Both the position numbers and the translations under genes were made by a program. This document shows, one piece after another, positions 15,561 to 46,590 of a DNA stretch of 64,000 nucleotides. Source of the DNA: a virus (taxonomy: Duplodnaviria > Caudoviricetes); the IMG/VR virus record IMGVR_UViG_3300037484_000235, positions 128,001 through 192,000 of that record; one strand, written 5' to 3'. Below the pieces are notes generated by a model. That model did no database searches. It was not told where the DNA came from and saw nothing but the letters and a program-made list of their open reading frames with translations. Numbering within the stretch: the stretch's first letter is position 1; every line of letters starts with the position of its first letter.

Positions 15561-16144
15561 CCAACATGCGCAAAGCGAGTCCAGAGCGGGTAGCCAAGCG
15601 TGCGATGATTCGCACGGCGGGTGAAGTCCGTTTCATCAAGGACAAGAGCAATGACGCCAGCCAGTGGGCGTGGAATGACTCCGGTCCTCAAGAGCGGAAG
15701 ATCACTCCGGACTTCGCGTTCAATCCCAAGAACACCAAGCCCCTAGCGAAGGTGTTGCGCTCTACGAATGCCTCTCTGGGTCATGCGATGGCGGCCTATG
15801 CGCTCTTCACGAAGTTGAAGTCGGCGGACATCTCTCCGGATGGCGCACTCGGCGGCAAGGGTTACATCCAGAAGATCGCAGAGATGCGTCGGGCATACAT
15901 GAACTTGGTCGAGGCGCTCTCTGCGCTTTCTGACACGCTCTACGATGAGATCCGGGCCCCACACTGGGCTGCAATCTCTCGGCAGGAAGATCCTGAGGAC
16001 CGCGAAGAGGTAGAGCAGATCGTTGAAGATGCTGTCGATATCAAGGCGGACCCAGAGGGCTGGGCTGAGGATCAAGAAGAGCAGATGGACGAGGAGAACG
16101 CCAACATCACGAAGCGTGCCTCTTTTAAACCGAGGGTCCGCTGA
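15557..16144 (+). CDS. Putative internal head protein
   Basis: RKAS-PERVAKRA, RTAG, KRAS; acidic C-terminal part. Confidence 0.55.
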   Translation: MTNMRKASPERVAKRAMIRTAGEVRFIKDKSNDASQWAWNDSGPQERKITPDFAFNPKNTKPLAKVLRSTNASLGHAMAAYALFTKLKSADISPDGALGGKGYIQKIAEMRRAYMNLVEALSALSDTLYDEIRAPHWAAISRQEDPEDREEVEQIVEDAVDIKADPEGWAEDQEEQMDEENANITKRASFKPRVR

Positions 16145-18303
16145 TGTCAAAATCTTCTCAACTACCGGATGGTGGACACATGCCAACCCTTGGCTCCAAC
16201 TACATGATGGACGGCTTCGACTTCGACTCAGAGTACGGGGACGGGCCGGATGCTGCCCGCAAGGATCCGGAGCTTCCTCGTTCGTCTCGGGGACTTGCGG
16301 GTCTTCCCGATGGATTCATGGGTAGAGACGAGCCGGAGGAAGAGTTTGACTTCCGGATGGTTGAGGGCGGCGACGAGCACGGTCTTGGCGATTTGAGCGA
16401 GATGTTCAAGGAGGCGACCCCTCTCATGGACTTGGCGTGGCTTGAGAGTGCAGAGCAAGATCCTGCCCGTCTTCCTGAGTCCATCAATCAGATCGAGCCC
16501 ACTCTCTCGGATCTCTACCAGACGGAGTTCGCGGATGTTCCTGGAACCGGGACCGTCAATGAGCTTGAGCAGGCGTGGGGCGTGAATCGTCGCACAGACG
16601 GACAGAATATTGTCCCCAACATCGTGTATCCGCGTCCGGTTACGGGACCGACCTCGGCGCTGCCACAGGACTTGCATCGAACCGTTGTGGCCCATGCCAT
16701 GCGGAAGTCTGCCTTTGGGGAGAGCTTCGAGAATATCACGCGTGATGTTCTGGCATTCTTCGGGGATGACATCTCGAAGGTTCAGGGGACACCGGCGTTC
16801 AAGAAGTTCTCTGCGGCTATCCGCTCAGTCCGTGCTGAGCACGGTCTGGTGGGCAACGTCTACGTGCGGGACTCCGCTTTCCCAGGACTTCACACAGGGA
16901 AGTGGGACGCCGCGATCAAGCGTAGGTGTGCATCCGCCAGGTACATCCTGACGAGTCCTGGGTCCAAGATCTCGGCCCTACAGAACTACATTGGCAAGCA
17001 GGTTGTGACCTCGATCCCTTGGGGCGAAGCCCTTGACCACTATCGCCCCATGATTGAGGCAAGCGGCAAGCGCATCGCCTCTGGGGACCCACGCAAGGCC
17101 CTCCAGGCGGCCTTCACGCAACAGGCTCCTCAGACACGTCGCGGGGCAACCACTTTCCCCACTCATGAGATGCCAACGGTTTCCAGCAAGGAGGCGCATG
17201 AAGCGTTCTCTAAGGCACCAACACAAGAGCGTGGCGTCATCTCGCGAGATGACGGGCATGCAGCCCAGGCCAAGAATGCCAGCGGGAGAATCGACCGCTG
17301 GGTGAAGGCGGGGCTGGTCACTGCAACAAGAGTGGCTCAGATTCGAGCACAGGTCTTGGATCCCTCGGACCTTCTTCGCACAGTGGCTTCTGAGATCTCG
17401 TCTACCAAGAAGGCTGCCTACACTGGCGTCGGGCTTGAGGCCAACAAGGCTCGTGAGTTCGTGACCACGAAAGACGCAGCTTGGACCTCCGATCAGAACA
17501 AAGAGATTGATCGGGTTGTCCTGGAGCGCGCACGCGCAGTAGTCGCCAACCTCGTGACCTCTGGGAAGATCTCGCAGCAGAATGCCAACACGGTCCTGAA
17601 GGTGTCCAGTGCGGAAGGGATGCTCCGTCTTGCGGCCAAGTACGTCGCAGGTCCGAAGTCCGCAGACTACAGTGGCACATCCTTTCAGGCAAACGTAGCA
17701 ACGAAGAAGGCTCAGGACATGAGCCCCATTCTCCCGATTGAAGTGCGGAAGCTTCTTCGTTGGGCTTCTGTCCAGATGAACGAGGGTGCTGCGGGCAAAG
17801 ATCTGGACTACTTGCTGTCTGCCAGGTTCTCGAATGAACTCCGCAAGACGGCTTCTGAACCCCTCACCCAGCTCCGCAAGAAGCACGAGGGCCTATCTGG
17901 TCACATGTATGTCGACGCGAGCGCTTATGCGTCCACGACAGGTACAGAGGGGTGTGATAAGGGTGCCCTTATCCACCGGGCAAACCAGCTCAAGATGGTC
18001 TTGGGGATGGATCGTTGTGCCTCGTGCGTTTCGAACGTCGAGTCACACTGCCAGAAGTACAGCAAGGTGATCGTTTCTGCAATCCCAGAGAAGCAGGCCA
18101 ATCGGTACCAGACGGAGATGATCCGCTTGGCAAATGCTAGTGACTCTGAGACCACAGCCTCCTTCTTCACCTCTCAGGGTGAGGGTGGATACGACCTACA
18201 GAATGAGGTGCTTGACAACATTGAGTATGACAGCACCCCACCTGTTGAAGAACTCGGCGGGATTCTCTTCGACGGTTTGACCCTAGACGCTGACGAGGAG
18301 TGA
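16144..18303 (+). CDS. Large putative head-associated protein
   Basis: 719 aa with many K/R-x-A sites; internal echo HGLVGNVYVRDSAF / HEGLSGHMYVDASAY; Cys cluster near the C-terminus. Confidence 0.6.
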   Translation: MSKSSQLPDGGHMPTLGSNYMMDGFDFDSEYGDGPDAARKDPELPRSSRGLAGLPDGFMGRDEPEEEFDFRMVEGGDEHGLGDLSEMFKEATPLMDLAWLESAEQDPARLPESINQIEPTLSDLYQTEFADVPGTGTVNELEQAWGVNRRTDGQNIVPNIVYPRPVTGPTSALPQDLHRTVVAHAMRKSAFGESFENITRDVLAFFGDDISKVQGTPAFKKFSAAIRSVRAEHGLVGNVYVRDSAFPGLHTGKWDAAIKRRCASARYILTSPGSKISALQNYIGKQVVTSIPWGEALDHYRPMIEASGKRIASGDPRKALQAAFTQQAPQTRRGATTFPTHEMPTVSSKEAHEAFSKAPTQERGVISRDDGHAAQAKNASGRIDRWVKAGLVTATRVAQIRAQVLDPSDLLRTVASEISSTKKAAYTGVGLEANKAREFVTTKDAAWTSDQNKEIDRVVLERARAVVANLVTSGKISQQNANTVLKVSSAEGMLRLAAKYVAGPKSADYSGTSFQANVATKKAQDMSPILPIEVRKLLRWASVQMNEGAAGKDLDYLLSARFSNELRKTASEPLTQLRKKHEGLSGHMYVDASAYASTTGTEGCDKGALIHRANQLKMVLGMDRCASCVSNVESHCQKYSKVIVSAIPEKQANRYQTEMIRLANASDSETTASFFTSQGEGGYDLQNEVLDNIEYDSTPPVEELGGILFDGLTLDADEE

Positions 18304-20080: not shown

Positions 20081-21922
20081 ATGAGTCTTGGAAACCTCGC
20101 TATGTCAGGTGCTCGGGCCGCCTCTACGGGGTTCAAGTCCAGACCCATTGCCACTATCACGGAGTTCATCGAGGAGTCGTGGGGACTCTCGATGCGGCTC
20201 TTCCCTGTGCAGAAGGTCATCCTCAAAGCCCATTATGGCATTGAGTTGGATGACAAGACTCCGTTTCAGATCTCCGATTGGCGTCGAGAGAAGTTCATGC
20301 AGGTGACTGAAAAGCAGTACCTGGAGTATCTTTTCAACGAGGGTCGGTCGAACATCAAAGAGGTCATCCCGGGGGACGACCGCCGAGAGATGATCCTTTC
20401 AGTGGGCAGACGCAGCGGGAAAACTACAATCAGTGCCTGTGTTGCTGCCTACGAGACGTACAAGCTGATCAGCAAGGGAGACCCACAGGGGTACTACGGT
20501 CTCCCAGCTTCCAACATGATCCAACTGATCTCTGTCGCTACAGACAAGGAACAGGCTGGATTGCTCTATCAAGAGGTGTCGGGACATTATCGAGGGTGCG
20601 CTTTCTTTGCGCCCTACACTGCCAACAACACACTGTCCTACGCTCGTTTCCAGACGCCAAAGGACGTGGAACGCTACGGGCCTTACGTTGAGAATCCAAA
20701 CGCTAAGGCGACCATCAAGATTACGTTCCGTTCCTGTATTGCAAAGGGGTTGCGTGGTGCCGGTAACATCGTCGTCATTCTAGACGAGGTGGCCCACTTT
20801 ACGGACAAGGGACAGTCATCTGCGGATGCTGTTTACAACGCGGTTGTCCCCTCTACGTCTGCGTACTCTCCGAAGGACATAAATGACACACGGGTCCCGA
20901 CGGGTCCAGTTGAAGCCCGCGTCATCCTGATCTCGTCCCCTCTTGGACGTCAGGGCCTCTTCTACAAGCTCTTCCAGATGGGGATGGGCGGCGGGAACGT
21001 CGGTAAGAACATGCTTTGTATCCAGGCGCCGTCCTGGGAAGTGAACCCGACAATCCCAGCCTCCGAGTTCGAGAAGAACTACCTCAAGGATCCCGCAGTC
21101 TTCTTCACAGAGTATGGCGGCGAGTTCACCGATCGTACTAGAGGTTGGCTTGAACGAGAAGAGGATCTGATCATTTGCATAGATCCCAATATGCGTCCTC
21201 AGTTGCGTGGGATTCCACGTAAACCGCATTTCCTTGGGTTGGACTTGGGTCTCAAGGGTGACGGTACAGCCATCGCAGTTGGACACGTTGACGACTCAGG
21301 GAAAATCAAGGTGGACTTGGTTGATCAAATCAAGGCGGGTGAGGGAAAATACGTTGATGTGGAGCGTCTGGATTTCGACACGGTGGCAGACTGGGTTAAG
21401 GAAATAGGGGACAGATTTTACCTCGTCGAAGGACTCTTCGACCAACACATAGGAATCCCCTTGGAACAGGCCCTCGCGAAGAGAGGGATGTCTCAAATGA
21501 AGTCCTATCTTCCTACGAAGGTACTGACATCCCAGATATTCCAGAACTTCAAAGATATGCTTTGGGATAAGAGGCTCCTTCTTTACGACTTCCCAATCAT
21601 ATCCCCAGAGAAACATTGCACTTACATTCTTGAGCTTCTGGAGCTTCAAGCACGTTATCATTCGAAGTACATTACGACCGTTGAGGCACCGGCTGTCGAT
21701 GGGAAACACGACGACTTGTCGGACGCCTTGGTACGAATGGTGTGGGTTGCTTCCAATCGGTTGAACAAGCAACCTCATATTGCACGATCTGGGATGCAAG
21801 GCCCCGCTAGCCCGTTTGGGTCTATGGCCTCCGCTCGTAAGAGGCTCCTTCGTAGCGGGAGTCACGAGTCAAGGATGGTTCCCAGAGGAAACTCCAGGGG
21901 ACCAAGAGGACGCACACGGTGA
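20081..21922 (+). CDS. terL: Terminase large subunit
   Basis: Walker A VGRRSGKTT, Walker B VVILDE, coupling motif ISSP, nuclease FLGLDLG...DGTA and GKHDDLSDAL. Confidence 0.95.
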   Translation: MSLGNLAMSGARAASTGFKSRPIATITEFIEESWGLSMRLFPVQKVILKAHYGIELDDKTPFQISDWRREKFMQVTEKQYLEYLFNEGRSNIKEVIPGDDRREMILSVGRRSGKTTISACVAAYETYKLISKGDPQGYYGLPASNMIQLISVATDKEQAGLLYQEVSGHYRGCAFFAPYTANNTLSYARFQTPKDVERYGPYVENPNAKATIKITFRSCIAKGLRGAGNIVVILDEVAHFTDKGQSSADAVYNAVVPSTSAYSPKDINDTRVPTGPVEARVILISSPLGRQGLFYKLFQMGMGGGNVGKNMLCIQAPSWEVNPTIPASEFEKNYLKDPAVFFTEYGGEFTDRTRGWLEREEDLIICIDPNMRPQLRGIPRKPHFLGLDLGLKGDGTAIAVGHVDDSGKIKVDLVDQIKAGEGKYVDVERLDFDTVADWVKEIGDRFYLVEGLFDQHIGIPLEQALAKRGMSQMKSYLPTKVLTSQIFQNFKDMLWDKRLLLYDFPIISPEKHCTYILELLELQARYHSKYITTVEAPAVDGKHDDLSDALVRMVWVASNRLNKQPHIARSGMQGPASPFGSMASARKRLLRSGSHESRMVPRGNSRGPRGRTR

Positions 21923-22191: not shown

Positions 22192-22515
22192 ATGAGCCGT
22201 CTTCGCATTCAACTATCCAAGTCTGACATCGACAGGAAGGTAGCTACCGCTATGGAGTCGGCGGAGCGCCTCATCCTGTCAACTTTGCGGAGTTGTGAGG
22301 TTTACATGCGGACAACCGAAAATCCTCAGGAATCTCGACGGGCTCGGATTGTGGTTCGGGATTTGAAAAGAGCCCTGGGATCTGTCACTGGAGTTCGCAG
22401 AGTTAGCTCAATCTATGACGCTGGGGACCCTGACTTGGAAGTGGATCCAGCTCCGAAGCTGCGACCCGCCGCTTCTCCTATTGCAGCCCCAGTAAGAGCA
22501 CCTGAATCCACATGA
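22192..22515 (+). CDS. Hypothetical protein
   Basis: 107-aa ORF coupled to the portal (ATGA overlap). Confidence 0.6.
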   Translation: MSRLRIQLSKSDIDRKVATAMESAERLILSTLRSCEVYMRTTENPQESRRARIVVRDLKRALGSVTGVRRVSSIYDAGDPDLEVDPAPKLRPAASPIAAPVRAPEST

Positions 22516-24212
22516 GAACAAGCAAACAAGCACAGAACGCGGACGCGCGTGAGGTCCGGAAAGTTCCGAAGCGGGCGAACGTCGAAACGGGGCGCCCTCG
22601 GCGCATTATGACTAGCTCGCTTCGATCGAAGGTAGCATTTCCACAATCCGGTGGAACGATTGGGGCAAGTGGTGGAAACTTCTACTCTCCAGAGCTATCC
22701 ACTGACTTCCTAGAACTCCCGCAATCAGCGGACGAGAAGCGGAATTACTACCGATTCTTCTACACTTCGGATCCTTTCGTAGGGCAGGCAGTAGACCTCC
22801 ATACGGAGCTGCCCCTCTCGAAGATTCGGCTGGGGCACCCCAAGGCCAAGAACAGAGAGATTGCAGATGCCTCACTGGCTTTCTGCACGGCATGGTCCAA
22901 GAAGGTTGGCCTTTTGCACCGGATGATTGAAATCGTCCACGAATACAATCTCCTCGGGGAGGTCTTTGTCTTCTGTGAAGACAACTCCCCTGACATGCCT
23001 GATGAGATCGAGAATGAACTAATCCGTGAGATCGACGAGTCAGGGCACCCTGTAGAACGTCAGAAGCGTCGCACAGATTGGGCTGAGCGAACTTCCAAGT
23101 GGCTCAAAAAGAACTACCTCGGCTGGTCTGCTATCCGTGTTCTGCCACCCGAGCAGATTCACATGGAAGGCTTCCCATTCACGGATGAAAAGCTCATTGA
23201 GTTGATCCCAGACAGCAAGACCAAGGACGTGATTGCCCGTGGCGACTCGGGTGACATCTACGCCTCCAGAGTCGTTGAATCCATGCCCTCTGAGGTTGTC
23301 TCATCTATTCGCAGTGGCGGAAATATCCCCCTCAATACTGACCCAAATGCTGGTAGTTTCGTTTACTACATGGCCAGGAAGAAGTCACAGTACGAGCCCC
23401 GTGGACACTCGATTCTTGAGCGCTGCATGCGAGTTCTTGTCTACCGAGATAAGTTGAGACAGGCACAAACTTCGATTTCGTCTCGGCACATGACGCCCAT
23501 CCGGCTCATCTGGGCAGAGGATGCAGCGGCCACAGACGTGGATTTGATTCGAGAACAGGTTGAGCTAGCTCTTCAAGACCCAGACTACTCAATCATCACC
23601 AACTTTGAAGTTCACTGGGAAGAGATGGGAAGTCAGCAACGCCTTCTGGAGTTGACGGGCGAATACGAGATGACCGATCGGCAGTTGTATGCTGGATTGG
23701 GTGTCACGGAGTCCCTTCTGTCCGGGGAATCAAGTTACTCCGGTGACCGGATCAACCTGGAAGTGATCAACACTCGGTATATGCTTCTGAGGGAGGTTCT
23801 TCAAGACATGATTGAGAACAACTTCCTCCGTCCGATGTGCGCACGTATGGGGTTCATCGAAAAGGATGACGACGGCAACGAGACTGTGATTGTACCTACT
23901 CTGTCGTTCACTCGACTTGCTCTGCGGGATAACGCGGACACATTCGACGCCCTCTTCAACCTTTACCAGAAGGGCTCTCTGGATATCGATACCATCTTGG
24001 ATCTTCTGAACATCGATCCCCACACCACGGCTGAAAAGCTCAAGCGGGACATGTTCACGCCCAATGACAGCAAGTTCAATGACGTGCTCGGAGCGATCTA
24101 CACTGAAGTCGGACGCGCCCTGGCAGAGAACAGCGATGTAGCCGAGAAGGTCGCCAAGGCCCTCGGTTTGAAGTACGAGAAACCAGCTGAAAAGGAAGAG
24201 GGGAGATTCTAA
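22512..24212 (+). CDS. Portal protein
   Basis: 566 aa between terminase and protease; FFYTSDPFVGQAVDLHTELP, RGHSILERC..LVYRDKL and LYAGLGV..SLLSGE pattern. Confidence 0.85.
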   Translation: MRTSKQAQNADAREVRKVPKRANVETGRPRRIMTSSLRSKVAFPQSGGTIGASGGNFYSPELSTDFLELPQSADEKRNYYRFFYTSDPFVGQAVDLHTELPLSKIRLGHPKAKNREIADASLAFCTAWSKKVGLLHRMIEIVHEYNLLGEVFVFCEDNSPDMPDEIENELIREIDESGHPVERQKRRTDWAERTSKWLKKNYLGWSAIRVLPPEQIHMEGFPFTDEKLIELIPDSKTKDVIARGDSGDIYASRVVESMPSEVVSSIRSGGNIPLNTDPNAGSFVYYMARKKSQYEPRGHSILERCMRVLVYRDKLRQAQTSISSRHMTPIRLIWAEDAAATDVDLIREQVELALQDPDYSIITNFEVHWEEMGSQQRLLELTGEYEMTDRQLYAGLGVTESLLSGESSYSGDRINLEVINTRYMLLREVLQDMIENNFLRPMCARMGFIEKDDDGNETVIVPTLSFTRLALRDNADTFDALFNLYQKGSLDIDTILDLLNIDPHTTAEKLKRDMFTPNDSKFNDVLGAIYTEVGRALAENSDVAEKVAKALGLKYEKPAEKEEGRF

Positions 24213-24514: not shown

Positions 24515-24814
24515 ATGACCACACTTCGAAATCGTGTAATCCGCCTCGCCCACAACAAGCCTGAACTCAGGGCTGCGCTGCTTCCGATTTTGAAGGAGGC
24601 AATCTCGAAGGAAGATGCTAAGAAGACGAGGGTGTCTGATACTGCAATCCGTACCGCCTACTATAAGGCGAGTGACGGTCTGGGTGCCCTGGTAGACGCA
24701 GTACGTGATGAGCCTGCCACCGGTAAGGACGCCAAGCTGAAGAAGGCTGTGGCGGATGCCAAGGCTGCTTTTGACAAGGTCGACGAGGCGCTGAAGCCGT
24801 ACGCTTGGGACTGA
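24515..24814 (+). CDS. Putative head-cargo protein with a shared N-terminal leader
   Basis: MTTLRNRVIRLAHNKPELRAALLPILKEA matches the leader of 40965-41582. Confidence 0.7.
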   Translation: MTTLRNRVIRLAHNKPELRAALLPILKEAISKEDAKKTRVSDTAIRTAYYKASDGLGALVDAVRDEPATGKDAKLKKAVADAKAAFDKVDEALKPYAWD

Positions 24815-25590: not shown

Positions 25591-28500
25591 ATGTTCTATA
25601 CTAAACTGGCAGTGTTCGATTTCGATAAGACGCTGTTTCTCAGCCCAGAGAAGCCGACGTGGTGGGAGGGTGGTTGGTGGGGGAACCTGAATTCCCTCCA
25701 CACGCCATGCGTTCCGGAACGTCCATCCTCGGACTGGTGGAACGAGTCTGTCGTCAATGCCGCAAAGCAGGCGATCAGCAACCCAGAAGTGCTGGCAGTG
25801 CTCCTCACGGGTCGTATTCCGAAGTTCTCTCTTCGGCTCAAAGAACTGTTGGGACAAGTAGGGTTGCACTTCGATCACCCTCCGTACATGGCGACCGGGG
25901 GTCCCACTGAGTCCTTCAAGATGAAGGTCATCAAAGATCTTCTCGATTCGAACCCCACCATTCGTGGCGTAGCCATCTGGGAAGACCGTGCCAATCACCT
26001 TCGGATGATGTCCGACTGGGTGGAGTCCAACGGGAGAGCCTGTACCCCCCACCTCATCACGGTCTCTTCTCACGAGTCGGATTGCAGGCCCACCAAGTCT
26101 GCGAAGTTCAAGTCCAAGAAGAAGATCAAGACCAAGGACGGCGATGATACCACGGTGTATGAGTACTCAGAGCGCCAGGTCTCAAATCGGAACAACCAGA
26201 AGGCAGAGCGTGTTGAGAAGCTCCGCAAGGACATTTCGAGTCTTAGGTCCAAGGTCAACAAGGACATCGCCTCAAAGGAGCCTGAGACTCGTCTATCGGC
26301 CCTAGCGGTCGCTCTGCTCGACGAGACGTGCGAACGGGTAGGGAACTCGGGTAGCGCAGCGGACGGCCATTTTGGAGTCACTGGGTGGCTCGTGAAGCAC
26401 CTCTCCTTCAAGGGTGGCGAGGCCACGTTCACCTACGTCGGGAAGTCCGGGGTCAAGCACGAGAAGGTCGTGTCCAAGGCGCCTGTCGTGAAGGCCCTCA
26501 AGCAGCTCGTTAAGGGCAAGGCCAAGGGCGACCTCATCCTGGAGCAGGACGGATTTTCGGTCAAATCTGAGGCTGTGAACGCCTACTTGAAGACTTTCGA
26601 GATCACTGCGAAAGACATCCGTGGGTTCCGAGCCAATCAGGAGATGTGCAAGGCTCTGCGAGAGGCCCGGAGAGAGGGCCCGGACCTTCCACACGCTCGG
26701 AAGAAGCGCGATGAGATTCTTAAGGGGGAGTTCAAGGACGCCCTCGAAGAGGTGGCGGAGATCGTGGGTCACACTACTTCGATCCTTCGAGAATCCTACC
26801 TAGTGCCCGGATTGGAGGATTCGTACGTAAAGGATGGGACCATTCTTGCGACATTCAAGGGTGCCTCGTTAGAGCATGAGGCAACGAAGACAGACTCGGA
26901 AAAAGAGGATGAAACTGTTTCGGATCTCATCAAGCCAAATCCCAAGAAGAAGCCACCACGTGAGGACTTGAAAAAGCATCGGGTAGACTTGGGCGACGAT
27001 GATTTGAACACGGAGGATGACGACCTCTCTCGCAACTACAAGAAGGTTGCGGTCCGTGTGGCTATGGCTGTCAGGGTCTCGACTCGGTATCTTCTGAGTG
27101 ACTTTGCAGAGGACTACGAGAAGTCGAAATCCGATGAGAACGAGACCTCCAAGAAGGAAGACGCCTCTTTTCTGGAAGCCGTTGAAGGGAAGACATTCAC
27201 GTCTTCTAAATCAAAACTGAAGGTTCAGTTTGGTAGCTTGCCGCCAGAAGACCAGGCTGAAATTCGTGCAGCTTGGAAAGAGCACCAGTCCAAGTCTGAC
27301 GATAAAGCGAAGACTGAGAAGGAAGACTCCGACGAAGAAGAGCAGGGACGCGTCAAGGAAGTGAAGGGCGGCCTTCGGGAGAAGGCAAAGGCCTTGGAGG
27401 ATTCCCCTGCTTTCGATGATGAGACAGGAGATCAGGTTGGGGAGGTTCTAGACTCTATCCTCAGCACGATGCCAGAGAGTGACGCTTCGGAGTTCGTGGA
27501 TTCGATCGTCTCGGCTCGTGATGCGGGCATTGATTCCCTGGCCAAGGGGAAGTCCACGGCCAAGAACCCACCGGACAAGGCGAGCCTTGATCGGGACGTC
27601 TCGAAGTACAATAAGCTGGACTCCAAGATTGAGAGTTACCAGCGGGACTTGGACTCTGGGCGCGTCTCGGAAGAGAAGGCCAAGTCAATCAAGTCCAAGA
27701 TTGAGTCTCTCTCCAAAGATCGTGATGAGGCCCGTGCCGAGCTTCAAAAGAGTTTCACCAAGTTCTACACCCATGCTGCGTTGCAATCTGCGATGCGGAA
27801 TCCGATGACCTACGTCAAGGATGCGAAGAAGCCTCTCGACAAGAGCAGCGTGGGAGATCGAGCCAGTGCTAGCATTGAGCGTTTCAGTGGTCTGACCTCG
27901 GAAGACCGGGTTGAGACTGCGAAGAATTTCAAGAAGGTCATGAAGAAGTCTCAGGACAGGGTCACTGAGCTAGAGCGGAAGCTCACCTCAGGTGAGGCTG
28001 GGGACGAAGATCAGCGCGCAAAGGACCAAGCGGAGCTGGAAGAGACGAAGAACAGAGTCGAGTATCTCGACGCTGATTGGAGATCTTTGGAAATCTCCTC
28101 CATCATCAATGGTGACGAGAAGTCGGAGTCCCGAATCCCCAAGGGTAGTGGAGTGCTCATTAAGGCCCTTCACGATAGCGGGCAGGACGTATCCGAAATC
28201 GTGGCGGCCGGGATAGGTATTCACGGGGTGCCTCCTGAAAAGGAAGTGATCTCCAATCTACTTCGTCGGATGAAGCCTGATCAGATGGAGACGGCCCTCA
28301 AGGAAGTGGACCCCTCTGGGAAACTGGCAGAGTCGTGGCGGAAAATCTACGATGCTGATGACAGCTCGGACTACGTTTGGCCTATCAGTGCCATCAAGGA
28401 CAAAGAGCAACGTGGTAAGATCGAGAACGCTCACGATGTGTTTGTTCAAATGCTCACGGGCGTTGTGATTGAGGATTCGAAGAACACGAGTCCCACGGAT

Positions 28501-28965
28501 CCAAGTGAGGGTCCACCTAAGAAGAACAAGTCTAAGGCGGAACCTAGTGAGGTTGAGGGGCCTGAGGAAGAAGAGACGCCTCAGTACGAGAGCCCTATGG
28601 CTGAGGCCATTGGAAAGATGGTAGATTTGGACATAGATACAGGCACTTCCGCCAAGAAGGTGGCTGCCAAATTCACAGCATTCCAATTGGAGAACAAGGC
28701 TAAGGAAGCCAGTCTAAAGGCTGAAAGGGCGCTTGCTTCTGTGGGTCTCACAAAGCAGGACATTGGTCCTTACATGCTCAGTGCCTCAGAGATTTACACA
28801 CGAGCTGCGGAGCTATCGGTCAAGTTTGGTTTCAAGCAAGAACGGTTAGTGCACGCAATCAAGTTCTATCAAGAGAACGCCACTAAAGGTGAGCGTTTGA
28901 TGGGCTTGGCTGTCAAGTCTAGATTTGGGGAATACGGGAGGGGTGAGTCAGAGATTCGCGTTTAG
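25591..28965 (+). CDS. Polyprotein: HAD (Swiss-Army-Knife RNA-repair-like) phosphatase, type IB topoisomerase and a long charged helical domain
   Basis: VFDFDKTLFLSP (HAD DxD); TopIB pentad R(CERVGN), K(YVGKSG), R(KDIRGF), H(VGHT), Y(RESYL). Confidence 0.85.
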   Translation: MFYTKLAVFDFDKTLFLSPEKPTWWEGGWWGNLNSLHTPCVPERPSSDWWNESVVNAAKQAISNPEVLAVLLTGRIPKFSLRLKELLGQVGLHFDHPPYMATGGPTESFKMKVIKDLLDSNPTIRGVAIWEDRANHLRMMSDWVESNGRACTPHLITVSSHESDCRPTKSAKFKSKKKIKTKDGDDTTVYEYSERQVSNRNNQKAERVEKLRKDISSLRSKVNKDIASKEPETRLSALAVALLDETCERVGNSGSAADGHFGVTGWLVKHLSFKGGEATFTYVGKSGVKHEKVVSKAPVVKALKQLVKGKAKGDLILEQDGFSVKSEAVNAYLKTFEITAKDIRGFRANQEMCKALREARREGPDLPHARKKRDEILKGEFKDALEEVAEIVGHTTSILRESYLVPGLEDSYVKDGTILATFKGASLEHEATKTDSEKEDETVSDLIKPNPKKKPPREDLKKHRVDLGDDDLNTEDDDLSRNYKKVAVRVAMAVRVSTRYLLSDFAEDYEKSKSDENETSKKEDASFLEAVEGKTFTSSKSKLKVQFGSLPPEDQAEIRAAWKEHQSKSDDKAKTEKEDSDEEEQGRVKEVKGGLREKAKALEDSPAFDDETGDQVGEVLDSILSTMPESDASEFVDSIVSARDAGIDSLAKGKSTAKNPPDKASLDRDVSKYNKLDSKIESYQRDLDSGRVSEEKAKSIKSKIESLSKDRDEARAELQKSFTKFYTHAALQSAMRNPMTYVKDAKKPLDKSSVGDRASASIERFSGLTSEDRVETAKNFKKVMKKSQDRVTELERKLTSGEAGDEDQRAKDQAELEETKNRVEYLDADWRSLEISSIINGDEKSESRIPKGSGVLIKALHDSGQDVSEIVAAGIGIHGVPPEKEVISNLLRRMKPDQMETALKEVDPSGKLAESWRKIYDADDSSDYVWPISAIKDKEQRGKIENAHDVFVQMLTGVVIEDSKNTSPTDPSEGPPKKNKSKAEPSEVEGPEEEETPQYESPMAEAIGKMVDLDIDTGTSAKKVAAKFTAFQLENKAKEASLKAERALASVGLTKQDIGPYMLSASEIYTRAAELSVKFGFKQERLVHAIKFYQENATKGERLMGLAVKSRFGEYGRGESEIRV

Positions 28966-34034: not shown

Positions 34035-34913
34035 ATGACCACCACAGTCAACAACGCCGTCAAGCAGAAGATCATCAGCGACTACCTCAAGACAGCTTCG
34101 GGCCGTAACAAGCTCGCAGCGTCGATGACGCAGCCGCTCCGCACTCGCCGCGACTACATGAGCGTCGGTCGCAAGACCTTCCTCGTGGAGCAGCTCCCCG
34201 ATGGTGCGCTTCCGATCTACGACAAGGACCCGGACGTCACCGCGTTCGTGGTCGGCGAGGAAGGCGAGAACATCCTCGCCATCACCAAGCCACGCCGTGT
34301 GATCTTCCCGCTGTTCGAGATCGCATCGAACCCGGAAATCCCACTCACGCAGATCAAGGAGCGTCGCTTCGATCTGATCGAACGCGCCCAGGATCTTGCG
34401 CGTGCGCAGATTCAGGCAGCAGAAGACGAGCGTGTCTTCGCAGTGCTTGACGCAATCGCAGTCAACGGATTCGACTCGCTTCCCGGCGGGACGAACGCTG
34501 ACATCCCGGTCATCGCACCGATCACCGGCGCGGTACTCGCAGACGCCTTCTCGCTCATCGAGCGCCACGACCTTCGGGTTGCTCGCGTTTACATGAACGC
34601 GCGGGACTACGCGGATATCCGCAAGTTCGGTCGGGACATCCTGGACATCGAGTCCCAGGCCACCCTGCTCAAGACCGGACTTCAGGCCACCCTCTGGGGC
34701 GCCCAGGTCATCACGAGCCGTCTCGTCCCCGTCGGCACCGTGTACGTGTGCTGCGAGCCCGAGATGTTTGGACGCATTCCCGTACGTACGGAACTCACGG
34801 TCCTGTCTGCCGACGACCCGAAGGCCCGCACGATTGGATTTTCGGTCTTCGAAAATTTGGGCATCGGCGCATACAACCCACGTGGGTTGGTCCGACTCAC
34901 GATCACTCGCTGA
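34035..34913 (+). CDS. Major capsid protein (probably HK97 fold)
   Basis: 292 aa after protease, scaffold and decoration; strongest codon bias in the window; followed by a terminator; IQAAEDERVF and LWGAQVITS patterns. Confidence 0.85.
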   Translation: MTTTVNNAVKQKIISDYLKTASGRNKLAASMTQPLRTRRDYMSVGRKTFLVEQLPDGALPIYDKDPDVTAFVVGEEGENILAITKPRRVIFPLFEIASNPEIPLTQIKERRFDLIERAQDLARAQIQAAEDERVFAVLDAIAVNGFDSLPGGTNADIPVIAPITGAVLADAFSLIERHDLRVARVYMNARDYADIRKFGRDILDIESQATLLKTGLQATLWGAQVITSRLVPVGTVYVCCEPEMFGRIPVRTELTVLSADDPKARTIGFSVFENLGIGAYNPRGLVRLTITR

Positions 34914-35031: not shown

Positions 35032-37626
35032 TTGGCCTCGTCCTGTGTTATGGTACCGATAATCACCGACGGGGCATACTACTTGGAAACCTCTCCGAAG
35101 AACTCCCCTAACAAGGGGTGGGCAAAACAGAATGGGCTTGATAGTAATCTTCTCAGGACTCTCTATGAGGAGATGACAGACAAAGAGATTGCGATTCGCT
35201 ATGCAGTGAGTGACGCCTTGATTTCCTACTACCGTAGGAAATGGGGCATCCAAACAAAGACGACCCGACAGAGGGTTGATAAGTCTCGGGTAGGTCAACC
35301 GACTCTGGATGACCTGACACCTGTCACCCTAGCGGACCTTTATGCGCAGATGGGTGATCGACAGGTTGCCAAGCTCTACGGGGTCCAAAAGCCTGCCATC
35401 ACAAGACTCAGACAGAAGTGGGGTATCTCAGCGCTGTCTAAGGGGGATCGCTCCGCAAATCAGTCAACTGGATTCACTGAGGTCCAGAAAGAGGCATGCG
35501 TTGGTACCCTTCTTGGGGATGGGCATCTCCTTGAGCGTGGGGTTCTGAAAGTCACCCACTCACAGGCTCAACTTCCCTACTTGATGAGGCTTCATGCTTT
35601 TCTAGCCCCCCATGTTCTCCCGATCTTCTACGAGGAGAAAGACATGGTGGAGAGCGGGCAGGTCGCCTACGCTTTCGGGTTTCGGACAGTGCAACACCCG
35701 TGGCTTGCAACCCTACGTGGTCTTTTTTACCCAGAGGGTCGAAAGGTGTTTCCGGAGGCTGTCCTATCGGCTCTTTCCCCACGATCCCTAGCTTACTGGT
35801 ATTGGGACGACGGGCATCTTGACTCCGGATTGCCCTCATTTGCGCTTGGTAACATTACAGAGTCTGAGGCTAATAGGGTGGCTCAACTCGTTGGTGAACG
35901 ATTCTCTTTGGACACCTACGTGAAGCCGCAATCCACGGAGACATGCAAGCTCCTTGGCATTAGAGCCCGTACCGCTGACGTGTTATTCTACCTGATCCGA
36001 GAGTTTGCGACGGTCGATCTCCTTTACAAAATGCCACAGAAGCATTGGCCACCTGGGATGGTCCCTAAGGTGCTTCCTTTGACCAAGGAAGCTCACGCCC
36101 TACCCGCCCCCTTAGTAGAGAGGTGTAGCGGATGGGGGAGCCTCAGTGAGGACCAGCGTGCAACCTTGTTGACTGATCTGGAGCAACACTGGCATACGAT
36201 TGGATTTCCTCACCCAGAGCCAAGACCGGAAGAGATTGGTGTGATTCACGCACTCAATCACACCCAGGTCATCCAGGATGGTGTAGTCAAGAACAGACAG
36301 GTTGGGCAGGCAACGTGTCATGCTTTTGCACCACATATCTGGAAAGCACGGTCCTATGGCGCGTCGTCAAGCCCGGATGACATCTTCCAGGATCCAACGC
36401 TTCTACAACAGGCATTCAAGTTGTGCCTCAATGGAGGGGGGATACCTAACGGCGCACGACTCAGAGGGGTTCTCAGGCTCCTTAGGCGATCTGGCGTCTA
36501 CAACTTTCGCCCATCAGCAGCTAAGGCGCTCACTGACCGTTACTGTCGTGTTGGGGGGACTGTGTGGGATCCGTGCGCTGGTTACGGGGGCCGCCTTCTG
36601 GGTGTAGCGCTCTCATCCGCCCTTCCCCATTACATCGCGTGTGAGCCCCAGAGCGAGACCTACACCCGACTTCACCATCTCCGGGATTGGGTTGACTCCT
36701 ATGTTCCTGGGGTTGCTTCCAGGGTGTCACTTCACAATGTACCTGCTGAGGAATTCGACGTTCCAACAGGAGTTGATATGGTGCTTACCTCCCCTCCTTA
36801 TTGGAAGCGGGAAACATACGGGAATGAGCCAACTCAATCCGGAATTCGTTACCCTACTTATGCAGCATGGTTGGAAGGATTTTGGAGGGTGGTGCTCACA
36901 AAGTCTGTACAGGCCCTACGCCCTGGGGGGTGGTTGGTACTCAACGTAGACAACTTCAAGATCGGGGGACAAGAGTACGGTCTCGTGGGAGACACAACCT
37001 TGCTCGTAAGGGGGTTTGGTTTCGGGGAACCAGATGTGTTGCGGTACGCGATGCCAGCCCCTGGAGACTCAGATAACGCTGAGTATGTTCTATGTTGGCC
37101 AAAGGCAGGTGTTTCATCCCAGGCGGTTCCAGTTGAGCCGATCAATGTGTCCTCGTGTTCTGGGTGTGGCAAACCGACACCGTTCTCACAGCTTTTAGGC
37201 GGGGAATGTAGTCGGTGCCGAACATTGAAGGGCGTAACAGTCGTGTGTGAGGGATGCGGGAAGCCTTTTGTGTCTCTCCGGTCTGGGACACGATTTCATA
37301 ACGAAGCCTGTTATGCTAGATTCAAACGACGGAAGTATCGGGAGGCAAATCCAGCAAAGACTTCTCGCACGTTCACCTGTGTGACTTGCGAATCCACATG
37401 GGAGACTGATCTGCATGGGAATTTCCATACTTGTCCTACGTGCCGTGAAGCCGCTGAGGTAGCAGGTCGAACGAAGATTTGCGTCTATCGGCACTGTGGC
37501 AAGTCTTTCGTGGATACATCTCCGAAGAACGGGATGAAGTTCTGTGCTCCTGAGTGTGGTAGACGGGAAAAGATGTTCAGATGTGGGAAGGCTATGGACG
37601 AGTCTTACTTCCGAGTCCGGGCGTGA
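35032..37626 (+). CDS. Fusion: 2 HTH, LAGLIDADG endonuclease, amino-DNA methyltransferase and multiple Zn ribbons
   Basis: GTLLGDGHL...YWYWDDG (LAGLIDADG_2-like); FRPSAAK..VWDPCAGYGGR (motif I) and TSPPYW (motif IV); 7 CxxC-type pairs at the C-terminus. Confidence 0.85.
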   Translation: MASSCVMVPIITDGAYYLETSPKNSPNKGWAKQNGLDSNLLRTLYEEMTDKEIAIRYAVSDALISYYRRKWGIQTKTTRQRVDKSRVGQPTLDDLTPVTLADLYAQMGDRQVAKLYGVQKPAITRLRQKWGISALSKGDRSANQSTGFTEVQKEACVGTLLGDGHLLERGVLKVTHSQAQLPYLMRLHAFLAPHVLPIFYEEKDMVESGQVAYAFGFRTVQHPWLATLRGLFYPEGRKVFPEAVLSALSPRSLAYWYWDDGHLDSGLPSFALGNITESEANRVAQLVGERFSLDTYVKPQSTETCKLLGIRARTADVLFYLIREFATVDLLYKMPQKHWPPGMVPKVLPLTKEAHALPAPLVERCSGWGSLSEDQRATLLTDLEQHWHTIGFPHPEPRPEEIGVIHALNHTQVIQDGVVKNRQVGQATCHAFAPHIWKARSYGASSSPDDIFQDPTLLQQAFKLCLNGGGIPNGARLRGVLRLLRRSGVYNFRPSAAKALTDRYCRVGGTVWDPCAGYGGRLLGVALSSALPHYIACEPQSETYTRLHHLRDWVDSYVPGVASRVSLHNVPAEEFDVPTGVDMVLTSPPYWKRETYGNEPTQSGIRYPTYAAWLEGFWRVVLTKSVQALRPGGWLVLNVDNFKIGGQEYGLVGDTTLLVRGFGFGEPDVLRYAMPAPGDSDNAEYVLCWPKAGVSSQAVPVEPINVSSCSGCGKPTPFSQLLGGECSRCRTLKGVTVVCEGCGKPFVSLRSGTRFHNEACYARFKRRKYREANPAKTSRTFTCVTCESTWETDLHGNFHTCPTCREAAEVAGRTKICVYRHCGKSFVDTSPKNGMKFCAPECGRREKMFRCGKAMDESYFRVRA

Positions 37627-40033: not shown

Positions 40034-40418
40034 GGGCTCGAAAGGTTTCGACAGGGAGGTGAAGAGAGAGGGTGCGCGCCTTGGTCGGTCGAAGGGCCAA
40101 GTAAAAAATCGACCTACGACAGCTGCCAACGATAACAGCTACGCTCTCACGGCAATCGCCGCGTGAGCCGTTCGCGGAGAGAGTTTCTCAGGTAGATCTC
40201 TTCGCGAGCGTAAAAGGAATCTGAGAGAACCTCGGGCCAGACCATCGAGGCTAAACATGGCGGTGACGGATAGACTCTGGGAAACCAAGAGCCTACCCGG
40301 TGGAAGGGCGCCAGGGACCGCAAGCCTACCGTAAGTGGCTTGGAATCCTGGAGACGCGCGTGGTGCCTGATCTTTAGTAATCGCTCTGGACGTGGTTTCA
40401 ATACCACCGAGTCCACCA
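40034..40418 (+). ncRNA. ssrA: tmRNA (one-piece), tag peptide ANDNSYALTAIAA
   Basis: 5' GGGCTCG pairs with 3' CGAGTCC-ACCA with a G3.U alanine-identity wobble; GGTTTCGAC near the 5' end; T-arm GTGG-TTTCAATA-CCAC; tag ORF at 40125-40166. Confidence 0.92.
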
Positions 40419-40964: not shown

Positions 40965-41582
40965 ATGGCGTCCCTCAGGTCCAAGGTGATTCGACTAGCA
41001 CACTCCCGGCCGGAGCTTCGCCCGGCTCTTCTTCCTCTGTTGAAGGCGGCTTCCGAAGAGGAGAACGAGAGTGAGGCGCAGGCCAGGGCTATTCTAGAGA
41101 AGAACCTGGAGCCCCTCAAGAGAGGCTTCTGGAAGCCCCCACACAATCTGGCCCTCAACTTTGCACTGATGGGCGCGAACCTGTGGACGTTCACCATCCT
41201 CCCGCTCTTCTGGAAGAAGCAGGGTTATCGGGCTGACCTCAACGGGATTGTGATCCAACCCCTCTGGCGGTCCGTGCAGAGTGGCACCACCCTCGGGTAT
41301 AGGAATACGTCGGGATTTGCTATCCTGACTCCTGATGTTGCCCAGAGCATCGTGAGTCTGATTGGACGGGCGGAGTCAATCCAGGACACAGTCCGGGAAG
41401 AGCTTCGGCTCATCGAGACTCACTTCGGGATTGAGATTCCAAGTCAGATCAAGACGTCCCTTGCATCTACCGACATGCTGAAGGTTGCAAAACGCCGTTG
41501 GCGTGTGGACACCCTCAAGCTCAAGAAGCGCCTCATCCCATTTGATGGCAGCAAGCCTAGAGACCTGGGCTCGTTCGATTGA
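40965..41582 (+). CDS. Putative head-cargo protein with the shared leader
   Basis: MASLRSKVIRLAHSRPELRPALLPLLKAA-S. Confidence 0.7.
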   Translation: MASLRSKVIRLAHSRPELRPALLPLLKAASEEENESEAQARAILEKNLEPLKRGFWKPPHNLALNFALMGANLWTFTILPLFWKKQGYRADLNGIVIQPLWRSVQSGTTLGYRNTSGFAILTPDVAQSIVSLIGRAESIQDTVREELRLIETHFGIEIPSQIKTSLASTDMLKVAKRRWRVDTLKLKKRLIPFDGSKPRDLGSFD

Positions 41583-45750: not shown

Positions 45751-45816
45751 TAGGGCTCGTTCGGTAACTCTCGGATAATGTTGGCAGGTGAGGAGCACCT
45801 TGCTTCTCCAGCCAAC

Positions 45817-46590
45817 ATGAAACGAACTAAGACAGCTTCGAGTCAGGTCGCATGGTCCCTTCTTGCGGAGGGTGTGACCCAGGCTCGTGTAGACATCCAT
45901 CGTTTGAGGCTCTTGATCGATAGAGCACAAGCCATGGTCGAGAAGTCCGAGGAACGAGAGCACATTTGGCAGGTGGCAGGTGACGTGATTCAGGGGATCC
46001 CTGATACGTTGTCCTCTGCGGAACGTGCTCTTGATCGAACCTCCTACGCCCTATCCGTTATGGGAGAGGATTTCCTACGTGGCAGATTATCATTTGATGA
46101 TCGTGCCAGAGTCGATGGCGCCGTGAAAACTTCCCCGTTCTCAGGAAATCGTGGGAAGGACTCAATGGCGTCCAGGGTAGCCCGTCGGTATCTTCTGGTT
46201 CAGGGTGTTGGTGGGAGGGGCTCAATGGAGTCCCGGGTGTCTCGCCGATACCTTTTGGCTCAGGGTGTTGCCCCAAGCGCAGAGGCCTACTTCTTCCACA
46301 ATCCGGAAATGAGGGAGGTCAGGCAACTCAGTGAGTCCAAAGCTATCTCTAATGACACCGGTGTGGCCGTCAATACGGTAAAGGGGTTGGAGTCTCCGGA
46401 TAGAACTGTATCCAAGGCACGTAGTGAGTCAAACAAGGCTCCGCCTACTCCGGATCAGATCAAGAGGATGCCAGGGGGTGCTGAGTTCTCCACTCTCAAT
46501 CGGTTCCTTGTGGAGACAGGACAGCCTGGGGTTCACGGTGTACCCGAAGGTCATTGGGAAGTCCCTAAACACCCTAAGTTGAAGCGGTGA
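45817..46590 (+). CDS. Putative head-cargo protein with a duplicated SRVxRRYL helix
   Basis: MKRTKTA-SS; MASRVARRYLLVQG and MESRVSRRYLLAQG. Confidence 0.6.
   Translation: MKRTKTASSQVAWSLLAEGVTQARVDIHRLRLLIDRAQAMVEKSEEREHIWQVAGDVIQGIPDTLSSAERALDRTSYALSVMGEDFLRGRLSFDDRARVDGAVKTSPFSGNRGKDSMASRVARRYLLVQGVGGRGSMESRVSRRYLLAQGVAPSAEAYFFHNPEMREVRQLSESKAISNDTGVAVNTVKGLESPDRTVSKARSESNKAPPTPDQIKRMPGGAEFSTLNRFLVETGQPGVHGVPEGHWEVPKHPKLKR

Follow-up and report, generated by a model that had tools for sequence, protein, structure and literature searches.

We identified a type IB topoisomerase (TopIB) joined to a conserved charged module in the head gene module of a bacteriophage genome fragment, and show that this core is a fixed head-module element in a very large family of uncultured huge phages, in which it is decorated in shuffled order with enzymes that process RNA or DNA ends. 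The protein under study, P0001, is encoded on a 64,000-nucleotide stretch of DNA (the window; positions 128,001 to 192,000 of IMG/VR virus record IMGVR_UViG_3300037484_000235, Duplodnaviria; Caudoviricetes) and carries a HAD phosphatase domain in front of the topoisomerase. We hypothesize, at roughly even confidence, that P0001 is a polyvalent head-cargo protein that delivers a DNA-relaxing enzyme together with RNA/DNA end-healing enzymes. The source record comprises 252,521 bases at an estimated completeness of 57% and is therefore a fragment of a huge phage. Its nearest GenBank relative is the uncultured phage LR745208.1 (485 kb), which was the only close relative recovered by tblastn, and no match to the head module was found among GenBank phages by megablast.

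The open reading frame (ORF) encoding P0001 is divided as follows, with amino acid (aa) limits given for each part and with model confidence expressed as the predicted local distance difference test (pLDDT) of AlphaFold2 (AF2) models:

25591..28965, plus strand: whole ORF, uninterrupted, 1124 aa, in the order HAD, TopIB, charged module, all-alpha domain, tail
25591..26085, plus strand: HAD_SAK_1 phosphatase domain, aa 1-165
26086..26112, plus strand: HAD-TopIB junction, aa 166-174, containing TKSA and a degenerate copy of an RVAA[KR][YF] element
26104..26865, plus strand: type IB topoisomerase, aa 172-425, a short N-terminal beta-hairpin and a catalytic domain
26881..27105, plus strand: conserved charged module of 75 residues, aa 431-505
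27040..27093, plus strand: tag site 1, aa about 484-501, two overlapping copies of an RVAxR[YFW] motif, containing KKVA
27163..28485, plus strand: all-alpha domain, aa about 525-965, pLDDT 80-94
28489..28650, plus strand: disordered acidic/proline/lysine linker, aa 967 to about 1020-1025, pLDDT <50
28654..28674, plus strand: tag site 2, aa 1022-1028, one copy of the motif
28675..28962, plus strand: additional C-terminal tail, aa 1029-1124, unique to this phage and modelled as helical with low confidence

The topoisomerase matches Pfam PF01028 (Topoisom_I) over aa 199-398 (E 5e-27; 95.3 bits against a curated cut-off of 23.7), and its sequence matches in the PDB are 6z01, 2h7f, and 2f4q. In the phmmer alignment to the variola enzyme (2h7f), residues R249/K285/R344/H394/Y403 fall on the catalytic pentad R130/K167/R223/H265/Y274, and all five are invariant in 99 of 99 aligned TopIB relatives. 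The intact R-K-R-H-Y pentad that had been read from the letters alone in a first-pass annotation of this DNA is thus confirmed. A model of aa 1-505 built on 112 sequences reached a mean pLDDT of 89.7, with values above 90 in both enzyme domains, 63 at the junction (161-170), and 55-77 at 421-505. Foldseek matched the topoisomerase fold to variola structures 3igc and 2h7f and to 3m4a (E 5e-13 to 1e-12; template modelling (TM) score by target 0.57-0.62), with Deinococcus TopIB also matched. Poxvirus TopIB (vaccinia and variola; PDB 2h7f, 3igc, and 1a41) is the best structural match (E 5e-13) and is likewise a small viral TopIB with an identical pentad. However, identity is only about 21-24%, the phage enzyme is fused to other enzymes and to a head anchor, and the separate N-terminal DNA-binding domain of the poxvirus and bacterial enzymes is not present, just a lysine-rich beta-hairpin being kept (aa 175-191, aligning to variola 67-79).

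The HAD domain belongs to the HAD_SAK_1 family (Pfam PF10307, aa 25-162, E 1e-22; 81 bits against a curated cut-off of 25.6), with a PNKP-like 3'-phosphatase fold. All four HAD motifs are present (I, D10-x-D12-x-T14; II, T73; III, K110; IV, E131-D132); motifs I-III are kept in 23-27 of the roughly 25 HAD relatives and motif IV in 13-14 of 14. Among the best non-topoisomerase Foldseek matches of the model are Pnkp1 (4xrp/4xru) and the T4 Pnkp phosphatase (5uj0/2ia5), at weak values (E 4e-3 to 3e-2; TM by target 0.34-0.61). The Pfam family name itself refers to RNA repair proteins, and aa 1-165 share the HAD fold, the DxDxT nucleophile motif, and the nearest fold match with the T4 Pnkp 3'-phosphatase and with Pnkp1 of the Pnkp1/Rnl/Hen1 RNA repair complex. 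Unlike these enzymes, the phage domain has no kinase or ligase fused to it or encoded nearby. Family membership and fold matches support a HAD of the polynucleotide end-healing type, as the first-pass annotation had proposed, and on sequence and model both enzyme domains are apparently active. In two related loci (L006 and L007) the HAD domain is encoded as a stand-alone ORF of 183 aa.

The charged module that follows consists of acidic, basic-proline, and acidic stretches, then NYK and an amphipathic helix, with helices modelled at 435-446 and 483-504. The segment annotated earlier as an acidic linker, and the KKVA site said to end it, both lie within this module. A long helical region had also been noted past position 27051, and the AF2 model bears it out as an all-alpha domain. 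This domain is lineage-specific: only about 15 close relatives have a homologue, all full-length copies recovered are joined to TopIB, and a single hit, P0152 (551 aa, on a 2.8-kb contig), comprises the all-alpha region alone. Searches of the PDB and BFVD with Foldseek returned only non-significant helical matches (TM ≤0.15 by query), and the C-terminal 645 residues of P0001 have no counterpart anywhere in LR745208.1. No PHROG match was obtained for the whole protein or separately for its C-terminal part. Independent contigs hold full-length relatives of identical domain order (L003, 1038 aa; L004, 1078 aa; P0002; and P0005). Its ATG is preceded by a G-rich stretch about 11-15 bases upstream.

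The TopIB-module core in huge-phage head modules

An exhaustive profile-free search over 1.84 billion representatives (clustered at 50% identity) recovered 3239 TopIB relatives at E <1e-3, of which 628 remained at E <1e-30. The best 150 representatives range from 238 to 3381 aa in length. The charged module was found in 136 of them, and 26 carry a HAD domain that is placed before, far before, or after the topoisomerase. The core of topoisomerase and module is fixed, but the partners vary, the HAD domain among them.

This variety is apparent in a Pfam survey of 106 regions upstream of TopIB in relatives. HAD_SAK_1 was the most frequent domain (19 regions), followed by 2H phosphoesterase (17), the CCA-type nucleotidyltransferase PolyA_pol (13), PAP2 (9), DUF5661 (7), and RNA_ligase (2), with Ham1, GNAT, GGACT, and ART-PolyVal found once each. 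The first-pass annotation had offered, as one option, a counter to RNA-cleaving defences; the 2H, PAP2, CCA-nucleotidyltransferase, and RNA ligase partners fit that option. Fe-Mn superoxide dismutase domains are also fused into two of the TopIB proteins, P0214 and P0056, alongside DUF5661 and PAP2. The 120 best length-matched relatives included no fusion of TopIB to a portal. A stand-alone PolyA_pol/CCA-type nucleotidyltransferase (547-aa frame; G000:C1:45866-46342, minus strand) is encoded in the source genome outside the window, and in other phages of the family the CCA-type domain is either fused to the TopIB protein or sited in the head module.

A scan of IMG/VR yielded 46 loci, the contigs of which measure 7 to 513 kb. 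Comparison of their ORFs with those of the window separates the loci into two layouts. In layout a, to which the window belongs, the portal gene is followed by small ORFs, a long TopIB protein of 500-2806 aa, homologues of two ORFs of 198 and 195 aa, and the protease, scaffold-like, and capsid genes; the long protein has variable N-terminal domains, then TopIB, then a variable C-terminal part. In layout b (about 20 loci), TopIB is a gene of 343-356 aa directly after the large terminase gene (TerL), mostly overlapping the TerL stop codon, and the post-portal protein (358-1310 aa) begins with a homologue of P0001 aa 431-505. That is, where TopIB stands alone, the charged module is the N-terminus of a separate protein. 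Because it holds this place in layout b, the module is, judging by sequence, the head of the post-portal protein, with TopIB joined in front of it in layout a. No Pfam domains were detected in eight of the module-headed post-portal proteins of layout b.

The surroundings of P0001 in the window are as follows:

20081-21922: large terminase (TerL)
22512-24212, plus strand: portal protein (phrog_16240, E 2e-34)
between the portal gene and the P0001 ORF: three small ORFs
between the P0001 ORF and the protease gene: two conserved ORFs, 198 and 195 aa
30327-31844, plus strand: head-maturation protease (phrog_18299, E 2e-14), conserved in its N-terminal ~260 aa
31841-33139: acidic scaffold-like protein, next after the protease
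34035-34913, plus strand: major head protein, 292 aa, without a delta domain (phrog_2522, E 4e-50)

With terminase, portal, protease, and major head protein around it and both Pfam matches within it, P0001 is the single HAD and TopIB protein of the head module that the first-pass annotation had described. Its position between the portal gene and the protease, scaffold-like, and capsid genes is repeated in most of the 46 loci and in LR745208.1, and this conservation spans very divergent phages, whose terminases are 42-83% identical. In total, more than 40 related huge-phage contigs have the gene as a constant component of the head module. The protease had no match among PDB sequences, either by single sequence or by a 17-sequence profile.

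The flanking motif and the KxA sites

A short motif recurs at the flanks of these domains. The pattern [RK][VIL]A.[RK][YFW] occurs 178 times in the 150 representatives, compared to 4.3 +/- 2.1 times in shuffled sequences, and its fuller consensus is roughly S-A-x-R-V-A-A-R-Y/F/W-L. The sites are distributed as follows: 75 of the 178 at the start of the TopIB domain, 42 at the end of the charged module, 11 within 30 residues of the protein C-terminus, 9 just before the charged module, 8 within 20 residues of the N-terminus, 4 at the end of a HAD domain, and 29 elsewhere. When TopIB starts were aligned in 146 representatives, an RVAA[KR][YF] element was seen to open the domain. Moreover, a weight matrix applied to twelve relatives with Pfam coordinates placed 26 of 27 motif sites outside domains, mostly right beside them. 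The relative L018 illustrates this arrangement, with the order HAD, tag, 2H, tag, TopIB, module with tags, and a C-terminal tag, where a tag is one copy of the motif. In the same loci, no copy was found in the terminase, portal, protease, scaffold-like, or capsid proteins, which together amount to about 80,000 residues, and in L028 the motif stands at the C-terminus of a stand-alone tRNA nucleotidyltransferase (CCA enzyme) encoded between the portal and TopIB proteins.

P0001 was scored with a weight matrix trained on distant relatives, for which the 95th percentile of shuffles is 9.7 bits. The two overlapping copies at tag site 1 score 10.6 and 18.7 bits and are modelled as an amphipathic helix (483-504). 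Tag site 2 scores 13.2 bits; homology with relatives stops here, and in most aligned relatives no more than about 25 residues follow the motif before the protein ends. The window has two further ORFs that carry the motif, at 16144-18303 (near 17626) and at 45778-46590 (near 46174), and several more do so elsewhere in the source genome. The copy in 45778-46590 is near-perfect and lies in a 270-aa protein without a PHROG match. Layout-b loci possess, in addition, a conserved ORF of 129-135 aa about 600 bases upstream of the terminase that starts with the motif at residue 9 (residue 15 in three loci; e.g., L011:6947-7336, L016:7039-7431, and L026:5595-5993). This small ORF likewise had no match in PHROGs.

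The first-pass annotation had instead seen the domains as bounded by K-x-A sites at which a polyprotein would be cut. Its coordinates are exact, with TKSA (aa 168-171) ending at 26103, FKGA (aa 422-425) at 26865, and KKVA (aa 484-487) at 27051, and a prohead protease that cuts after each of them would free the HAD domain, the topoisomerase, and the linker. A protease gene is indeed present in the head module, and true domain limits fall only a few residues away from TKSA and FKGA. However, the protein contains 10 KxA triplets, compared to 10.3 +/- 2.9 in shuffles; the closest relatives have unrelated residues or gaps in place of TKSA and FKGA; and KKVA sits inside the conserved, helix-forming motif of the charged module rather than at a boundary. 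We therefore reject a KxA cleavage grammar, given its chance-level count and the lack of conservation of TKSA and FKGA, and consider this exact scheme very unlikely. The module limits themselves are real, as shown by the HAD domain that forms a separate ORF and the charged module that heads a separate protein, and are marked, if at all, by RVAxR[YFW] rather than by KxA.

The KxA idea probably came from a different element. A 29-residue N-terminal leader with the core LIRLAH..PELR..LLPLLK is common to at least 10 otherwise unrelated proteins of this genome, two of them in the window (24515-24814 and 40965-41582) and eight more outside it, and also heads different proteins in L001, L005, L006, and L015. 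In several of these proteins the leader ends in K-[EA]-A, which speaks for the cleavage scheme, but its context LLPLLK is absent from P0001. This leader is a candidate capsid-targeting or propeptide sequence, distinct from RVAxR[YFW].

Possible roles of P0001

Polyvalent proteins of phages and conjugative elements combine at least two unrelated enzyme domains in one polypeptide. Iyer et al. (2017, PMC5512222) argue that the phage versions encoded among virion genes are likely packaged, and cite DdrB and DarA of phage P1 as cases in which the protein is processed and packaged. P0001 and its relatives resemble them in the mosaic order of their domains, in the location of the gene among the virion genes of a portal-terminase phage, and in the 2H phosphoesterase partner. 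Of the signature domains (LPD, ART-PolyVal, MuF, and metallopeptidase), none is found in P0001, the marker LPD1 occurs in the relative L025, and ART-PolyVal is present in 1 of 106 relatives. Because topoisomerase is named just once in that study's text (PMC5512222), TopIB is not among the domains it treats, and text searches of the study turned up neither the family's own anchor module nor its own flanking motif.

A parallel for the enzyme itself comes from poxviruses, whose TopIB is packaged in the viral particle and relaxes or otherwise handles DNA for early transcription. For loading, the working model would be T4 Alt and IPI-III, which carry a capsid-targeting sequence, and the phiKZ inner-body proteins, all of which enter the procapsid by means of a short address and are then trimmed by the prohead protease. 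No sequence is shared with these proteins, and the address in the phage protein would be internal or terminal and repeated. By analogy, the charged module, the RVAxR[YFW] motif, or both may act as an address that brings P0001 into the procapsid. Either intact or after cleavage at its junctions by the prohead protease, whose gene lies 1.4 kb downstream, the protein would then exit together with the DNA. Once in a new host cell, the topoisomerase could relax or handle the several hundred kb of incoming DNA, much like the packaged enzyme of poxviruses, and the phosphatase could heal the 3'-phosphate ends that host nucleases leave on tRNA, other RNA, or DNA.

If proteins of this family are loaded into capsids, a topoisomerase and RNA/DNA end-healing enzymes would reach the host along with the DNA of huge phages. 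Such delivery would parallel the packaging of topoisomerase by poxviruses and would meet defences that cut tRNA or RNA with enzymes prepared in advance. The flanking motif and anchor module offer a concrete, testable way into the question of how selected proteins come to fill very large capsids, and they could be used as tags to load foreign proteins. Full-text literature searches returned nothing on a phage virion TopIB or on a TopIB-led, module-anchored, tag-flanked head family of huge phages. Polyvalent proteins and the packaged poxvirus enzyme are already known.

Several points weigh against head cargo. No cultured relative is known. At the start of TopIB the motif runs directly into the strand that opens the domain, such that it may be partly structural there. 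P0001 lacks the 29-residue leader and its conserved context, and its Pfam scan revealed no LPD, MuF, or metallopeptidase marker; for Phage_Mu_F (MuF/SPP1 gp7) in particular there was no Pfam match at E up to 1 and no PHROG match. Huge phages are also known to insert non-structural genes into their structural blocks, and the layout-b position of TopIB directly after TerL also fits a role in packaging.

Such a role would place TopIB at the terminase-portal motor, where it would relieve twist as several hundred kb fill the head and would have no task in the next host, with the other domains as passengers. The roughly 20 stand-alone genes abutting TerL, the constancy of TopIB while other enzymes vary, and the small ORF upstream of TerL that opens with the same motif all agree with this explanation. 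We nonetheless think it unlikely, since in the window and in the rest of layout a TopIB does not adjoin TerL but forms part of the post-portal module protein, packaging offers no evident task for the RNA-directed partners, and no phage is known to require a topoisomerase at its packaging motor. It is similarly improbable, in our judgement, that these are late cytoplasmic enzymes that are never loaded, their gene merely residing in a late operon and the helical C-terminal part representing an unrelated fusion. That account draws on the lack of direct evidence for loading or for a capsid-targeting function of the charged module or motif, and on a C-terminal domain without a recognisable fold. 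The conserved position across such divergent phages, the constant fusion to the module that heads the post-portal protein, and the confinement of the motif to this protein class argue otherwise.

TopIB chemistry passes through a 3'-phosphotyrosyl intermediate with a 5'-OH acceptor, and the vaccinia enzyme can generate a 2',3'-cyclic phosphate when it acts at a ribonucleotide and is also able to join to RNA that bears a 5'-OH. This allows for an RNA repair kit, in which TopIB would join 2',3'-cyclic phosphate to 5'-OH ends of RNA and would work alongside the 2H, HAD, PAP2, and CCA-adding domains, so that the resealing of broken tRNAs would need neither ATP nor a kinase. Consistent with such a kit, the fused partners are mainly RNA-end enzymes, no polynucleotide kinase domain was seen among the partners surveyed, and the available 57% of the genome revealed no RtcB or RNA ligase but does encode a stand-alone CCA-type enzyme. 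We regard it as quite unlikely, however, because both sequence and fold are those of an ordinary DNA TopIB, co-fused polyvalent domains often have unrelated targets (PMC5512222), and a classical RNA ligase is in fact present in a few relatives. A broader version of the head-cargo hypothesis would have huge phages possess a general modular capsid-loading system, in which motif and charged module address enzyme cassettes, separate or fused, the motif also marks protease cut points, and the load is a tRNA/RNA repair kit with TopIB as the ATP-independent joiner; we offer this as a speculation to which we attach little probability.

Further observations on the head-module loci

The major head protein is far more uniform than its neighbours: its identity between phages is 86-99%, compared to only 40-85% for their terminase, portal, and protease, and its nearest cultured relatives are the capsid proteins of cluster C mycobacteriophages (28% identity). 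Directly past the capsid gene, the window encodes an 864-aa ORF (35032-37626) with PHROG matches to LAGLIDADG homing endonuclease, HNH endonuclease, and DNA methyltransferase.

In several relatives (L005, L006, L009, L026, L027, L041, and others), the terminase, portal, or protease is about twice its normal length, with TerL of 1060-1119 aa, a portal of 1095 aa, and proteases of 913-1474 aa. These doubled lengths suggest inteins. Within the TopIB family itself, the 2806-aa protein of L009 contains a Pfam intein with LAGLIDADG. Finally, the phage genome carries a tmRNA gene, at 40034-40418 of the window, that encodes an unusual 13-residue tag peptide ending in AA.

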